Shown here piece after piece: positions 5,266 through 28,894 of a DNA stretch of 31,037 nt. The notes under the pieces were generated by a model that made no database searches, was not told the DNA's origin, and was given only the letters and a program-made list of their open reading frames with translations. The stretch's first letter is position 1. Every line of letters begins with the position of its first letter. Both the position numbers and the translations under genes were made by a program. Source of the stretch: a virus (Duplodnaviria; Caudoviricetes); IMG/VR virus record IMGVR_UViG_3300020042_008065, positions 1-31,037 of that record. The stretch is one strand, 5' to 3'.

Positions 5266-7917
5266 TTAAACTGGAAAATTTTGTGTAAAGCTCAACTGTG
5301 ATGGATAGCCCAGCAAGGGATTGCCACCCAAGGGTACCTGCCGTACACCACCACCAGTGTATTTGAACATGCCAAAGGTGACTTCAGCTGTGTATGCCGG
5401 TGAAACAACCTGAGTACTTGCACTGACAAAAAACAACGGTTTGGTATTCATGGCTGCATGGGCACCAAGTATGGTGCTGTAGGCACTTTCATAACAGCCA
5501 GGCCCTGTGGCAGATGTTTCAACACCCACACCTGGAGTTATGGCTGTGAATACATATTCTGGTGCTGAAAAATTCAAAGTGGCTCCTGGTCTACTTATGG
5601 TCAACACTGTGCTTAGATTCCAATTTGAACTGTTTGGATAATTGTAAAACTGTCTATCCATTCTGATGTTAAGACTCTTGGCTGTGGGCCAGGTTCCTGC
5701 AAATGATCCTCCGCGACCCCAGGACCATACAGTGCTGCTGCCTGCTTTGAGTGCAATGCCAGTTACCCAGAGATACATTGAGCTCCAGTATTCGTAGTTG
5801 CTGTGTGTGCCAAACATATACCAGGGAATCTGCCGCAGACTACCAACAATAACTGATCCTGCAACATAACCTCCCGTGATGTCATCGTACTGCCATCTTG
5901 CAGGTCCTGAAAAGTTATCTACCTGACCACCTGCCACTGCAAATGCTGATGTGGTCATGTTCATGTTGCTGTAGAAAGCAGGGCCCCAGGTGGCAGGATT
6001 CACAGCGGTTCTTGTGGTGAAGTCGCCAGGCACAGGCATGGCCAGAGTGGCATCTCTTGACCTGATCCTGGCCATGTTTGATGTGACATTACTGTTGCTG
6101 CTTGCGGTGGTGAACTGTATGGTGCTTTGTGAGGCTGAGTTGGCTGTGCTTGTGACATCAATCTGATCAGAGGCAACATTTCCATAATACAATGGACTAT
6201 ACGCAGTGATCATGATGTTGCCAGTGGTTTCAACATCACCAATGTGATATGGTGCTCTTAGATTAGCAGTGGTCACTGTGGTGGTATTGTCAAGTGTGTA
6301 GGGATAAAGATCAAATGTACCTGTGCGTTGCTGTCCATATCGTTGTAGATAGCTGGCTGTGATACCTGTGCTGGGCAGTGTCACGGTCCAGGTCAGTCGC
6401 CAATCTTCTGCATTGATAATTTTTGCATTGCTTTGAGTCGCAGCGCCGCCATCGTCCTGGGCTCCTGTGTCTTGATGCAACAACATCACTGTGTTGGTAT
6501 CATTGAGAAAACTCACAGCAGGTTTTGCAAAAGTTCCTGTATAACGCACCGTGTTGCTGAGACGAATCTCATCAAAGTAGCCACGCAGTCCATTGGGCCT
6601 AGTGGTAGTCTCAGAGAAATGACCCATGACCAAGCGAGCAGGTGTGGATACTGGACATGTTATGAGTCCTGCACCAGGCAAAGGAACACTACTATACATC
6701 TGATTCATAACCTGCTGCCCGTTCACGTAGAGTCGCAAGAGATTGTCAGTGGTTCTGGTCACAGCCACATGCATGGGAGTGTTTAGAGAAAATTCTGTGT
6801 ACAACACCTCTGGACCACCGCCTGAACCACGACCTATCAGAGCCAGCACTGTTAGTCCGGTACTGTTGTAAGGACTTAGAGGACCCAGTATTCTCAGCTG
6901 AATCTGATCAGTGATTCCAGGTGTTCCTACTACATTACCACCTCCAGTGATATAATTTTGATAGTAGTTTGCTTCACCATCAGACGTAAACAACACCTGA
7001 CTTATGTTGAGATAACCTTCAAATGTGAACTCTGCAGCACTCACTGTGTTGTTCAAGAGATTCAACACACTAGGTGCTGTGGTATTGAGGTTGTTGAACC
7101 CTGCCATTGAGAATGCACTGTTAAAATAACCTGATGCCAAGGGCAAGTTGTTGGGTTCTGGATTTACTATAATGGGAGTTCGTTGTGCTCCAGACTGTTG
7201 AACCACTAGACTGTTTAGATGTGCATTGATATTGGTTCCGGTTCCGGCCAGGCTCAATCTTGCAACGTTGGCACTGACTGCGGTAAAGGTGTTGGTAGTG
7301 AGTGTGGTGTTGCTAGTGGTAAACAGACGCACTGCATTGAAAGGATCCTGTGTGTCAATGGTAAAAGTGTATGAGTTTGACAAGGGTGCTTCATTGCCAA
7401 TCTGACACACCTGTGTGGAATTCAACACAGTGTTGGCATTGGCAGTGTAGATCACATCATTGGGTGCCGGTATCAACAGAGGTTTTTCAGCAAAGAATAA
7501 GTTGTAAGGAATGCTGTAGGTATAACCAGCACTGTTGGCACTGGCCAGCGTGAGTGTTAGACTCACATTGCCAAAAAAGTTCAAGGGCGGATTAAAGCTG
7601 GCGTCAGATGTGAGCCAGTCTTGTGTGCTGTGTATGTTGCCGGCTGAATAAACACCTGTGACCACATTGCTGGTCACAACAACATTGGGACTTTCAGCTG
7701 CTGTGACAAAAGTTATGTTACCGCTGGCTGCATTGGCCAAGGTATAGGTGGCAGTGATACCTGTGCTGACCAGAATATTGCCCATGGTCTGAATCATGGC
7801 CCAGGAAGGCGGAGTGATAATCAAGGCATCATCTTCAACACCAGACACATACTGAGTATCAACCTGATACACAACATTGGAACTGCTGAAACTGTTGAGA
7901 CTGGCCAGAGTGGTCAT
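5266..7917 (-). CDS. Large virion protein with a ConA/LamG-like lectin domain, 883 aa
   Basis: FTFEG, HVAVTR...LRLYVNG and GYFDEIRLSNTVRYTGTF...F.ND.NT..LLH match the LamG-like pattern seen in phage tail proteins. Confidence 0.75.
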   Translation of the reverse strand: MTTLASLNSFSSSNVVYQVDTQYVSGVEDDALIITPPSWAMIQTMGNILVSTGITATYTLANAASGNITFVTAAESPNVVVTSNVVTGVYSAGNIHSTQDWLTSDASFNPPLNFFGNVSLTLTLASANSAGYTYSIPYNLFFAEKPLLIPAPNDVIYTANANTVLNSTQVCQIGNEAPLSNSYTFTIDTQDPFNAVRLFTTSNTTLTTNTFTAVSANVARLSLAGTGTNINAHLNSLVVQQSGAQRTPIIVNPEPNNLPLASGYFNSAFSMAGFNNLNTTAPSVLNLLNNTVSAAEFTFEGYLNISQVLFTSDGEANYYQNYITGGGNVVGTPGITDQIQLRILGPLSPYNSTGLTVLALIGRGSGGGPEVLYTEFSLNTPMHVAVTRTTDNLLRLYVNGQQVMNQMYSSVPLPGAGLITCPVSTPARLVMGHFSETTTRPNGLRGYFDEIRLSNTVRYTGTFAKPAVSFLNDTNTVMLLHQDTGAQDDGGAATQSNAKIINAEDWRLTWTVTLPSTGITASYLQRYGQQRTGTFDLYPYTLDNTTTVTTANLRAPYHIGDVETTGNIMITAYSPLYYGNVASDQIDVTSTANSASQSTIQFTTASSNSNVTSNMARIRSRDATLAMPVPGDFTTRTAVNPATWGPAFYSNMNMTTSAFAVAGGQVDNFSGPARWQYDDITGGYVAGSVIVGSLRQIPWYMFGTHSNYEYWSSMYLWVTGIALKAGSSTVWSWGRGGSFAGTWPTAKSLNIRMDRQFYNYPNSSNWNLSTVLTISRPGATLNFSAPEYVFTAITPGVGVETSATGPGCYESAYSTILGAHAAMNTKPLFFVSASTQVVSPAYTAEVTFGMFKYTGGGVRQVPLGGNPLLGYPSQLSFTQNFPV

Positions 7918-23207: not shown

Positions 23208-23461
23208 TCTGTCACCTCTACAAACCAAGACTCAAGAAAGTCCATGTTATAACTTTTCACACTCACGCTGTATTCGTGATCAATAGGGTCTGTAAGGTCA
23301 TTCAAGAACAACATCAAATCGCCTTTGGCAATGTCATCAAACTTGCCCTCTGCTGTAGGATTAGTTGGCACAAACCAAGTCTCACCTGTTTCGTCAACAC
23401 AGGCTAACACTTTTAATACCATTTGGTGATTGCGATCACGATATAGTTTATAGTCTGACAT
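23204..23461 (-). CDS. Small early protein, 85 aa (MSDYKLY...)
   Basis: AAGGAG SD; first gene after promoter P3. Confidence 0.75.
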   Translation of the reverse strand: MSDYKLYRDRNHQMVLKVLACVDETGETWFVPTNPTAEGKFDDIAKGDLMLFLNDLTDPIDHEYSVSVKSYNMDFLESWFVEVTE

Positions 23462-23495
23462 TTGTTGCTCCTTGAAGCGTTGTTGATAAGTTGTT

Positions 23496-23809: not shown

Positions 23810-24026
23810 TTTGTGGTGCCCTTTTTGTGAGTTCTGCGGCTTCACGCAGGGTCATGTCAGGGAATGTGTCAGTGAGATACTGACGATACTCAATCAAGGC
23901 GTTGTTGATCCAGGTATCAAATTGATGCCCTTTGTAGTGACTGCGAACATCAGCAACGTCATCAAACCTGCCGTCATGGGCTTTGCGAGTTGCGAACTCG
24001 TGAAACGCGATTGCTTGCTTGGACAT
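23802..24026 (-). CDS. Small early protein, 74 aa (MSKQAIAF...)
   Basis: AGGAG SD; first gene after promoter P2. Confidence 0.75.
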   Translation of the reverse strand: MSKQAIAFHEFATRKAHDGRFDDVADVRSHYKGHQFDTWINNALIEYRQYLTDTFPDMTLREAAELTKRAPQNV

Positions 24027-24085
24027 AGTGTCTCTCCTGTATAAACAACTCATTTTGCGATGTGCTTTTTGCTGTCTATGTGTGT

Positions 24086-24155: not shown

Positions 24156-24359
24156 TTAGATCAAGTCTTTGTTGTAGATTGCATTGTAAAGTTCATTGTT
24201 GATTTTAGTCACAGCCAATTCAGTAGCCTCAGACATATTTTCATAGTCTTCATTGCCAATGATATCTAAATGCAGACCAAACACAATCTCTTCAATTGCT
24301 GTAAGTTTAGCCACCAATTGTGCGTGTGTAAGTTCTGTGAGTGCTGTTGCGTTTTGCAT
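24156..24359 (-). CDS. Small early protein, 67 aa (MQNATALT...)
   Basis: AGGA SD; only gene between P1 and P2. Confidence 0.75.
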   Translation of the reverse strand: MQNATALTELTHAQLVAKLTAIEEIVFGLHLDIIGNEDYENMSEATELAVTKINNELYNAIYNKDLI

Positions 24360-24418
24360 AGTGTAGTTCCTGTATAAACAACTCATTTTGCTGTGTGCTT
24401 TTTGCTGTCTATGTGTGT

Positions 24419-27220: not shown

Positions 27221-28049
27221 TCCACTACAATAGGGTATAGTTGTGTTGTTGTTATTTCTTTTCAAAATTAACTCTAAATCCAGTTCTCTCAAGAACTCTT
27301 GCACTCAAAGAGGTGTGATCTATCTCACTCTCACAACTCCATCCATCATGTTCCAGAAAATGCCGGTTATTGGTTTCACAAAGAAACTCACGAATCTCAT
27401 TGAGAACCTGTCTTTCTAGATCAAAATACACACTCCACTTCTGACGACTTGAAATAGCAAGCATTCGTTCACGATTGTTTTTGTCTTGCTTGCTTCGTCG
27501 TGACATTGTGGGCTTGATGTAATCCCAACAGGTCTTTATGTCTGCTCGTAATTGAGTCATGTACTTGTGCTGTTGTAAGAAACGGATTCGTGCCACATCT
27601 CCTGACAGCAATTTGTAAATCTCAGTTGTGGGGTTCGCACTTAACTTTGCCCCTGCCAGCAAGGCATTGATGATGCGTTTGATAATTTCTGGATCTACAT
27701 CTGCTTGCTGTGCAATTTGTTTGCGGATGCTTTGGCGATCACGCAAGTAATCACGCAGGGCAAATAGATACAGATCCATAGGCCCTTGCTGCCATTTGCT
27801 ATTGTGGACGACTTGTTGTATTTGTTGTGCGTGTTGATGTATCAAGGTCATAGCACAGCATTCAACATCATAGTGATGTTTGTATCCGTTTTGCTCCAGC
27901 ACAGTTTTTTTGTAATTACGTTTGAAGTTCTGTAGCGGATGCCAAAGACGGCTACTTTGATCATTGTAAGCAAAACTGCCTGTGTTGAGTTCTGACTGAT
28001 ACTCTGCTTGAGCAACTTCCACTACAATAGGGTATAGTTGTGTTGTTGT
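27221..28049 (+). repeat. 32-bp exact direct repeat tccactacaatagggtatagttgtgttgttgt (27221-27252, 28018-28049)
   Basis: Read directly; one copy is at the stop codon and one is inside the 362-aa gene. Confidence 0.92.
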
Positions 28050-28340
28050 GTTATTTTTTATCAACCCAATGGATTCGCAAAGATCGTCAACTCCTGTTTG
28101 ATTTAACACATACTCTTTGCACTTGCCTGTGTCTTTGCTCCAGTGACTGTTGGTCTCAATCAGCAGTTGTTGCCGCAGATACCTGCAGAGATCATTTCGC
28201 TGACTACCAAACCACTTGTCAATGTATCTTGTGCTCCACTGTTGTGATTTGGTCGTGCTGATTACTCCTGAAGCAAAGCCAATGGCTCGCCGGATTCGTC
28301 GTTGGACCCTGGGGTCACTAAAGTTGGGTGTGTACGCCAT
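27252..28340 (-). CDS. Minimal family-A polymerase-fold protein (TV-Pol-like putative primase-polymerase/replication protein), 362 aa
   Basis: Ordered motifs RLWHPLQN, YDVECCAMTL (motif A Asp), R..IA.......K...NALLAG (motif B), YF.LER and LEHDG (motif C); no exonuclease domain; basic N-terminal domain. Confidence 0.7.
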   Translation of the reverse strand: MAYTPNFSDPRVQRRIRRAIGFASGVISTTKSQQWSTRYIDKWFGSQRNDLCRYLRQQLLIETNSHWSKDTGKCKEYVLNQTGVDDLCESIGLIKNNTTTQLYPIVVEVAQAEYQSELNTGSFAYNDQSSRLWHPLQNFKRNYKKTVLEQNGYKHHYDVECCAMTLIHQHAQQIQQVVHNSKWQQGPMDLYLFALRDYLRDRQSIRKQIAQQADVDPEIIKRIINALLAGAKLSANPTTEIYKLLSGDVARIRFLQQHKYMTQLRADIKTCWDYIKPTMSRRSKQDKNNRERMLAISSRQKWSVYFDLERQVLNEIREFLCETNNRHFLEHDGWSCESEIDHTSLSARVLERTGFRVNFEKK

Positions 28341-28358
28341 TTGCTGCTCCTATACTGT

Positions 28359-28387
28359 ATTATATAGTATTGTAGTGGAAAAATCAA
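28359..28387 (-). promoter_or_regulatory. Sigma70 promoter of the polymerase-like gene, overlapped by an inverted partial copy of the 32-bp repeat
   Basis: TTGATT (28382-87)-17-TATAAT (28359-64); 28368-28380 tattgtagtggaa is the reverse complement of 28017-28029. Confidence 0.8.
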
Positions 28388-28409: not shown

Positions 28410-28430
28410 AAAAAAAAGCCTGCAGCAGGC
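28410..28430 (-). terminator. Intrinsic terminator
   Basis: GCCTG-CTG-CAGGC followed by T8 on the minus strand. Confidence 0.8.
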
Positions 28431-28551
28431 AGGGTGTTGGAGCAGGACGGGGTGTGTTTTTATAGGAACCAAATATCAGCGTGACATTGTGATTGGACTC
28501 TTCCCGTTGAGTCTGCGTTTAGATCACTTGTGAATGATCCCTTGCTCCAAC
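28410..28551 (-). ncRNA. Candidate structured ncRNA (~140 nt), multibranch
   Basis: Starts 4 nt after TAAATA; 5' GUUGGAGCA pairs with 3' UGCUCCAAC; three internal hairpins, two with minus-strand G-U pairs; ends at the terminator. Confidence 0.7.
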
Positions 28552-28555
28552 TGAG

Positions 28556-28561
28556 TATTTA
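28556..28561 (-). promoter_or_regulatory. TAAATA putative late promoter of the ncRNA
   Basis: Same N4 spacing to the first paired base as to the ATG of the leaderless genes. Confidence 0.6.
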
Positions 28562-28858
28562 GTCATCTGAGAACAACACATCAGGAATTTTTTCACCCAA
28601 TAGGCCTCTCACAGCAGTGATCAACAAGGCTTGACTGATCCAGTAGGGTGTGATACCTTGAGTGATGGCCTGCTGGATCAGTTGGGTGCTGCTGGCCTGT
28701 GTCCAGCTCCTGCACACCTCTGGTGAGTTGTTTTGCATCAGACGTTCAGCACCCTTCAACAAGATCTGCATTTCCAGCACAGTGACCGGTGTCCAACCTG
28801 GCCATCCTAGATCACCAAAGTCCCACCATACCGGACGTGAATCATATTGTGTGTGCAT
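28559..28858 (-). CDS. Hypothetical protein, 99 aa, leaderless
   Basis: TAAATA-AGCC-ATG with no SD. Confidence 0.65.
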   Translation of the reverse strand: MHTQYDSRPVWWDFGDLGWPGWTPVTVLEMQILLKGAERLMQNNSPEVCRSWTQASSTQLIQQAITQGITPYWISQALLITAVRGLLGEKIPDVLFSDD

Positions 28859-28862
28859 GGCT

Positions 28863-28894
28863 TATTTACTTGGCACAATTTGGTTTCGTAAATA
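28863..28894. promoter_or_regulatory. Divergent pair of TAAATA-N4-ATG promoters
   Basis: Minus copy at 28863-28868 before ATG 28858; plus copy at 28889-28894 before ATG 28899. Confidence 0.7.

Follow-up and report, generated by a model that had tools for sequence, protein, structure and literature searches.

The window (the whole stretch of 31,037 nucleotides analysed here, a virus record of 31 kb that is rated complete) represents a phage whose sequence makes it very likely that a short, folded RNA is produced in the late phase of infection. Most relatives share the design of this RNA, which points to an undescribed mechanism, based on predicted pairing, by which such phages turn genes off. 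We have considerable confidence that the RNA is real. Our best explanation, over which our own judgement is evenly divided, is that it is a late trans-acting antisense RNA shutting off nearby early genes. The window encodes terminase, portal, scaffold, capsid, tape measure and tail fibre proteins, nearly all on the minus strand; the terminase has two subunits and the portal is SPP1-like. Metagenome runs from freshwater and lakes hold the window (17 DNA runs, with shares of 0.37-0.65, among 24 listed). Relatives were collected through a 362-aa polymerase-like protein and comprise 37 records, fetched whole or in part (six as the first 20 kb only; G019, a near copy of G020, was omitted from the genome set); phages of this group are 28-39 kb long. 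No cultured relatives of the 362-aa protein were found in phage or plasmid collections, nor any of the RNA, and the search for a host returned two genome matches only, one of them a short contig in a bin, and no host.

The RNA sits at the end of the late block, after which a host-type promoter opens the block beginning with the 362-aa gene. The RNA and its parts are:
28410..28551, minus strand: predicted small RNA of about 142 nt, its 5' end placed at the first P1 base by analogy with four apparently leaderless genes and the distance there between box and ATG.
28436..28551, minus strand: P1, closing helix around the multiloop, GUUGGAGCA (28551-28543) with UGCUCCAAC (28444-28436).
28522..28539, minus strand: hairpin 1, from the fold, with two one-sided pairing-preserving changes in the homologue G037.
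28496..28513, minus strand: hairpin 2, with loop AACGGGAA, from the fold and the pairs of G037.
28467..28494, minus strand: hairpin 3, an inner hairpin (28488-28472) with an outer stem AAUCA/UGGUU that we add to the structure first proposed.
28447..28507, minus strand: pseudoknot adjoining P1, ACGGG (28507-28503) with CCCGU (28451-28447).
28410..28430, minus strand: intrinsic terminator, stem 28430-28418 and U8 at 28417-28410.
28556..28561, minus strand: TAAATA box, a putative T4-late-type promoter core, overlapping the stop codon of a 99-aa gene, four bases before P1 and kept in G037.

All the elements of the original prediction, which described a multibranch RNA with a possible pseudoknot, lie on the minus strand where it had placed them, and the minimum-energy and centroid folds both coincide with its structure; P1 is lengthened beyond a bulge by two further G-C pairs (28541-28540 with 28446-28445). 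On the minus strand the fold has a z of -2.29, reached by 3 of 200 shuffles, and on the plus strand, which does not outdo its shuffles, a z of -0.95; the RNA body minus its terminator has a z of -3.4 (60 shuffles). G037 (record L197/L245) is the sole true homologue among 80 fetched matches. A tighter scan revealed no homologue of the window's type beyond it, and gapped pattern scans gave one set of 3 matches with one further RNA of this type (G037 again) and one set of 7 with a single new copy of another type, the rest being chance.

Between the window and G037 the RNA is better conserved than the neighbouring gene, because 105 of 125 columns are identical against 227 of 300 in the gene upstream; the first 62 nt of the RNA contain 3 changes. 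The 28 pairs counted in P1, hairpins 1 and 2 and the pseudoknot are all kept (56 of 56 cells paired), P1 being invariant at 11 of 11, and besides the two one-sided changes in hairpin 1 there is a single pair, in the pseudoknot, with both partners changed, from G-C to A-U. The suggested pairing between loop and junction thus gains one compensatory change, which counts as support for the structure and not as proof, being one event in two sequences, a number with which the covariation shuffle control (228 of 500) cannot discriminate. G037 has a remodelled hairpin 3 and another terminator stem; the U-tract stays.

Comparison of the window with Rfam 15 gave no match at the gathering score, and relaxing the threshold to E 10 added only two human lncRNA models, with 11-15 bits. 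Across 16 related loci the only Rfam match was COG2908, outside the TAAATA-to-terminator unit; this motif (67.7 bits, L029 168-212) lies directly 3' of a unit's terminator. ARAGORN reported no tRNA or tmRNA gene, the longest sense reading frame has 3 codons, a 103-aa frame on the plus strand is not kept in G037, and no conserved gene lies opposite the RNA. In assembled RNA contigs, whose cover of the region is sparse and shallow, a discrete transcript was not seen; two of the three RNA runs (X18 and X20) lack cover of the unit and give no evidence either way, and an RNA contig starting at 28555 is mirrored by a DNA contig ending at 28563.

The surroundings of the RNA consist of:
28559..28858, minus strand: 99-aa gene upstream of the RNA, apparently leaderless from the TAAATA at 28868, with its frame kept in G037 and no family.
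28359..28387, minus strand: candidate sigma-70-type promoter of the 362-aa gene, TTGATT-17-TATAAT, a 10/12 consensus match.
27252..28340, minus strand: 362-aa protein, an N-terminal part of about 100 aa followed by a minimal family-A polymerase fold.

A stand-alone structured RNA with its own promoter box and terminator on the minus strand, as first envisaged, is what the sequence suggests, box and U-tract being kept in G037; it also ends before the sigma-70-type promoter of the polymerase-like gene, as had been stated, with U8 running to 28410 and the promoter occupying 28387-28359. The latter promoter is argued from its position, because consensus matches are equally frequent in shuffles. 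TAAATA occurs nine times in the window, mostly before genes or operons, among them the scaffold/capsid, tape-measure and tail-fibre blocks. Four copies (28868, 28889, 26972 and 20775) stand 4-5 bases before an ATG with no Shine-Dalgarno sequence and apparently head leaderless messages, of which two lie back to back; 28899 is the probable start of the plus-strand gene. In the first 26 genomes no hexamer is more enriched between genes than TAAATA (7.3-fold; 228 intergenic and 176 coding copies). Its excess over base composition is modest in single genomes (0.7-7.2-fold), and in the HTVC041P control low GC makes the count uninformative.

Late promoters of T4 and the cyanophages have the consensus NATAAATA/TATAAATA and require the phage sigma gp55 (PMC2984593, PMC3014915). 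The window's box matches this core and precedes virion genes; late expression of the RNA is nevertheless something we only infer, because no sigma gene was found. Among the ORFs scanned, with general profiles of which none is gp55-specific, there was no match to gp55, gp33 or gp45; Sigma70_r2 was absent from 5 of 5 complete records and found in 10 of 14 controls, and the protein clusters held no conserved sigma candidate. Five phages (the window, G013, G016, G020 and G022) have T4-type late boxes yet no recognisable sigma, helicase, SSB, integrase or lysin gene, and dependence of this group on a helper phage is possible. Late promoters in phages without a sigma gene raise the question of who transcribes them.

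The most conserved single-stranded part of the RNA, AUAUUUGGUUCCUAUA, was missed by the original prediction; it is invariant in G037 and complementary to a ribosome-binding site plus start codon, so that a link with the polymerase is more likely to run through its mRNA than through the protein. The seed and the candidate targets are:
28461..28468, minus strand: exposed anti-Shine-Dalgarno seed UUCCUAUA, invariant in G037, mean unpaired probability 0.83.
28331..28354, minus strand: predicted target, the ribosome-binding site, AUG and first codons of the 362-aa gene, in a duplex of 21-22 bp at -20.3 to -20.8 kcal/mol.
23451..23475, minus strand: second candidate target, the start of an 85-aa gene (23461-23204), -19.8 kcal/mol, 2nd of 30 own starts with a Shine-Dalgarno sequence.

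The predicted target lies 70 nt downstream of the RNA on the same strand. Its duplex would comprise nine pairs over the Shine-Dalgarno region, a two-base bulge and six pairs over the AUG, after which codons 2-3 would pair with the loop of hairpin 3; the anti-start triplet UAU (28475-28473, minus strand), in the 3' strand of hairpin 3, wobbles G-U on the AUG. For the window module the polymerase start ranks 1st of 47 own starts and 9th of 1209, and the starts of the major capsid gene and a 156-aa tail-region gene rank 28th and 29th of 30. G037 has a different downstream gene, whose start fits the same module at -26.9, and the adjacent starts of both phages begin with TATAGGA, a motif found in 12 of 717 Shine-Dalgarno starts. 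With structure included and the terminator omitted, 2 of 250 foreign Shine-Dalgarno-bearing starts outbind the adjacent start for either RNA. Net binding after the folding cost is weak in the window, at -4.7 kcal/mol for the core (3rd of 30) and -6.4 for the whole RNA (5th of 47), and for the whole G037 RNA, which has an extra anti-Shine-Dalgarno motif, 151 of 250 foreign starts do better in a set that includes starts without a Shine-Dalgarno sequence. Shuffling everything but the seed gave an equally good duplex 209 times in 2000; taken by itself, the extension over the AUG is therefore not significant. A contiguous-match scan and a sliding duplex scan of the window revealed no strong own target, and both miss the bulged duplex. 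The polymerase mRNA may itself start inside the seed match.

From these features we propose the following course of events. The RNA would be transcribed from the TAAATA box, of the kind that also heads the virion operons, and so would appear late; P1 and the pseudoknot, supported by the fold and one homologue, would close both ends into a stable scaffold that leaves UUCCUAUA single-stranded. The seed is predicted to bind the Shine-Dalgarno region of the adjacent sigma-70-driven mRNA, with pairing extending into the 3' strand of hairpin 3 and covering the AUG, so that 30S loading would be blocked. The polymerase-like replication protein, and perhaps other early proteins, would then be turned down and the capsid and tail messages spared; relatives would use the same design with re-tuned seeds.

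The relatives contain a family of such units. Non-coding TAAATA-to-terminator units number 36 in 29 of the 37 genomes, window included, at 0 to 4 per genome; seven polymerase-bearing genomes lack one (three of them partly fetched), and the unit of G032 was merged with that of G031. A 5' helix of at least 6 bp is present in 29 of the 36, and the median fold z is -2.0. Units adjoin either a siphovirus-type or another virion module, and 28 of 31 lie no more than 3 kb from the polymerase start. In one sequence cluster of four RNAs, two-sided changes affect 8 of the 48 pairs predicted. No homology is detectable from one cluster to another (a two-sequence covariance model matched no other unit in 61 loci), and what unites the family is a common design. 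Phages G004, G005, G006, G020, G021, G023 and their kin share the polymerase, box and RNA design with the window's group and have a virion gene set unrelated to that group's. L292 and L293 have an identical 100-nt RNA body with unrelated terminator stems, and L093 (G023) holds at 6258-7145 three units within 900 bp, two in direct tandem and each with an anti-start module, with a unit-like stretch just upstream, in effect an sRNA array.

Of 28 units (those of the first 26 genomes, one coding unit dropped), 15 have an anti-start G-N-C-A-U with UCC after it, against 1.6 in shuffles, none of 200 of which reaches 15; the reverse order occurs in 4 (2.8 in shuffles) and the sense order in none. Because the anti-start-then-UCC order is enriched and the sense order absent, the polarity of the motif is that of an antisense strand. 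Frames opened on the opposite strand from the anti-start sites mostly have 2-27 codons (three have 39, 50 and 73), and the shortness of these frames indicates that the sites are not the starts of divergent genes. Anti-Shine-Dalgarno motifs, 28 of 37 of which are predicted to be unpaired, often lie just 3' of the anti-start hairpin. We therefore regard it as probable, though well short of certain, that these RNAs pair with translation starts of some kind; whether the main targets are their own nearby genes we judge to be an even call.

The order and spacing of these motifs also bear on the proposal that the RNA binds a protein, as a decoy for a host translation or RNA-binding protein or as part of a stable RNP, with the anti-Shine-Dalgarno sequence touching protein or 30S and not mRNA. 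The conservation of P1, hairpins 1 and 2 and the pseudoknot, with those 3 changes in the first 62 nt, exceeds what pure antisense would need and speaks for it, but an anti-start and an anti-Shine-Dalgarno motif in antisense order and spacing have no protein-binding rationale, and no sequence is common to the family. The target motif of CsrA is ANGGA, and decoys of the CsrB/RsmY type have several ANGGA loops; the window RNA and G037 have one GGA-containing loop and no ANGGA. We consider this reading very unlikely.

Which starts are matched is less clear across the family. Of 23 modules, 3 were dropped for too few own starts or no neighbour; among the 20 left, the best own target is no farther than 1.5 kb away in 8, against 3.2 expected (P 0.006). 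When targets were swapped between genomes, 9 of 33 modules placed their own in the top tenth, with a Wilcoxon p of 0.15 over 15 clusters and a permutation P of 0.02-0.25, or 0.045-0.32 minus the window's cluster. Family-wide target specificity is thus borderline, and the definitions of module and neighbour and the choices of analysis were set after seeing the window. About two thirds of the modules have no nearby match, and the module of G016 fits best, among its own starts, that of a tail-region gene at a distance of 6 kb. The adjacent targets examined carry -10-like boxes upstream.

A broader action would account for part of this pattern. Copying the 16S tail and initiator anticodon, the RNA might mask numerous strong starts, be they the host's or those of a T4-like phage in the same cell; its match with the neighbour would then be incidental. 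Many modules lack a target of their own, several RNAs carry 2-3 anti-Shine-Dalgarno motifs, and the lack of a sigma gene in these phages would fit dependence on a helper; moreover, the module shared by G031 and G032 exactly matches eight foreign gene starts in IMG/VR, three of them large-phage major capsid genes by reading of their translations. Against such masking, the G031 module ranks its own neighbour first, foreign matches are expected where strong starts are alike, and of the foreign sequences that match the window's seed region exactly, 26 in all, 3 fall at starts of long frames, these scans being uninformative; blastn of two modules against cultured phages gave only matches at E 0.4-5. 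We regard masking of this breadth as rather unlikely.

The position of the units suggests action in cis as well. Most lie directly upstream of the early block and on its strand, and in the window and G037 each RNA matches the very next start, as would suit an insulator at the late/early boundary whose terminator halts late read-through and whose anti-Shine-Dalgarno sequence, in transcripts that escape, folds onto the next start. But every unit has its own promoter box, often following a divergent gene, G023 has three units in a row, and the conserved closed scaffold exceeds the needs of a mask. In addition, G009 forms 23 bp with its own polymerase start 1.5 kb upstream (1st of 1209) and the target gene of G031 is on the other strand; neither could be reached in cis, and both argue for action in trans. 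We find the insulator distinctly improbable and retain the late antisense RNA acting in trans as the better account.

The protein whose mRNA it would pair with is probably a replication primase/polymerase, according to a structure model with pLDDT 92.5. Residues 100-362 of the model match family-A DNA polymerases at Z 11.4-10.1 and T7 RNA polymerase at Z 9.5; the N-terminal 100 residues were barely tested. Sequence comparison with Pfam, PHROGs and solved chains gave nothing useful, and the Atlas gave unnamed clusters and a lead of 0.75 to DNA_pol_A. D158, K221 and H331-D332 are invariant in 69 sequences, as is an alanine at the fifth residue after the motif-A aspartate, a position that we take to be that of the ribonucleotide-excluding glutamate in DNA polymerase I; on this sequence evidence, synthesis of RNA primers seems plausible.

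Among known proteins the TV-Pol/CcPol primase-polymerases have a minimal family-A palm and fingers and reside in mobile elements (PMC2579912, PMC10061031). The 362-aa protein resembles them in its minimal family-A fold and catalytic aspartates and in having a homologue in a mobile element (L272), and differs in that no D5 helicase or SSB partner was recognised in these phages, the likeness being one of fold. The modelled protein fits a replication primase of the TV-Pol kind, which would make a late shut-off sensible, and it may in addition have a promoter-reading role. In L272 (5600-12800, record titled Duganella) the element around the homologue bears an integrase and defence-like genes, read as TIR-like and ATPase genes; TAAATA occurs 7 times on one strand and never on the other in 12.9 kb, once 40 nt before the homologue.

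The original prediction had instead tied the RNA to the polymerase itself, as partner, template or primer, or to DNA packaging as a pRNA-like molecule. The nearness of 28 of 31 units to the polymerase gene and the fold of its product favour such a tie, but the linkage is explained by the early-block position, the RNA sequence is conserved neither with the protein nor with the portal family, and seven polymerase-bearing genomes (three partly fetched) have no unit. A primer is further contradicted by the RNA ends, which are paired or U-tailed and leave none free. The polymerase connection loses its footing in G037, where another gene lies downstream of the same RNA, and in the contigs of runs X19 and X9, which diverge from the window at 28379, just behind the RNA; both roles are at odds with units that are unrelated in sequence among polymerase-sharing phages, stand beside two virion modules and vary from 0 to 4 per genome. 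The phi29-type pRNA is tied to one portal/ATPase family and has a conserved fold and loop-loop multimer contacts; a two-subunit terminase, an SPP1-like portal, two unrelated virion modules and no Rfam match rule against it here. We therefore consider a polymerase-bound or packaging RNA extremely improbable.

The trans-acting antisense RNA that we prefer has partial counterparts among phage RNAs. In sequence it has the marks of trans-acting antisense sRNAs, namely its own promoter, an intrinsic terminator and no reading frame, together with a predicted exposed seed. The P22 sar and the lambda OOP and aQ RNAs pair with phage mRNA, block its translation or destabilise it, and time the cycle (PMC12197685), and the window RNA is like them in the predicted translation-blocking pairing of a phage RNA with a phage mRNA. 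Whereas they are described as antisense to their targets, the window RNA is encoded apart from its target on the same strand, and its pairing would be imperfect (G-U pairs, bulges), its expression of late type and its target a replication gene. A cis-encoded antisense RNA of the sar/OOP/aQ type was rejected, with no conserved gene opposite and the predicted target downstream on the same strand. The trans-encoded, Hfq-dependent PreS, VpdS and 24B_1 of temperate phages target host genes, host sRNAs or an antirepressor (PMC12197685); they too have their own promoter, an intrinsic terminator with a U-tail and short imperfect pairing, whereas the closed multiloop with pseudoknot of the window RNA has no counterpart in what the same partial source describes for them.

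T4 also combines late promoters with RNA structure. Intramolecular masks in its e, soc, 49 and I-TevI transcripts act in cis and keep late genes off early (PMC3014915); the likeness lies in a T4-type late promoter beside an RNA structure that hides a ribosome-binding site, and the difference in that the window RNA would work in trans and silence early genes in the late phase. According to this 2010 review, T4 had yielded no characterised small regulatory RNA that acts in trans (PMC3014915). In overall shape the window RNA recalls another group, in being a short multi-stem RNA closed by a 5'-3' helix, and differs from it in having no Rfam match. That group is formed by the C4 RNAs of P1 and P7 and the CI RNA of P4, multi-stem phage RNAs that act in trans on phage transcripts, control immunity and are cut by RNase P. 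The literature searched, which did not extend to subscription journals and supplements (with possible motif tables), holds neither this RNA class nor this lifestyle.

Two more far-reaching readings would connect the late boxes with the RNA. In the first, late transcription is borrowed from a co-infecting T4-like phage and the RNA is a helper-triggered switch-off of the phage's own replication gene, some members hitting starts of the helper or host. In the second, TAAATA is read by the minimal polymerase, and the RNA made in this way silences the mRNA of that polymerase, giving a feedback loop of two parts. That one or the other is right we think unlikely; if so, the RNAs would form a re-programmable guide-like class central to an undescribed phage lifestyle. 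To our knowledge, few phage sRNAs have a known target. A closed scaffold combined with an exchangeable anti-start module would give a widespread group of lake phages a simple timer, open to testing, for the early-to-late switch, and would offer a silencing scaffold of natural origin that needs little protein. Both target and seed are specified to the base, which permits a direct reporter test.

The window contains repeated sequences as well. A direct repeat with core TACCCTATTGT occupies 28018-28059, inside the polymerase gene, and 27221-27262, just past its stop, 797 bp apart; the pair recurs at a spacing of 760-850 bp in 10 other genomes, and an inverted look-alike (28361-28380) overlaps the promoter of the polymerase gene. 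Origin, nick or recombination sites are possible roles for these repeats. At 24026-24053 and 24359-24386, two near-identical upstream regions (ACACATAGACAGCAAAAAGCAC...) precede two small genes and are probably duplicated early promoters.
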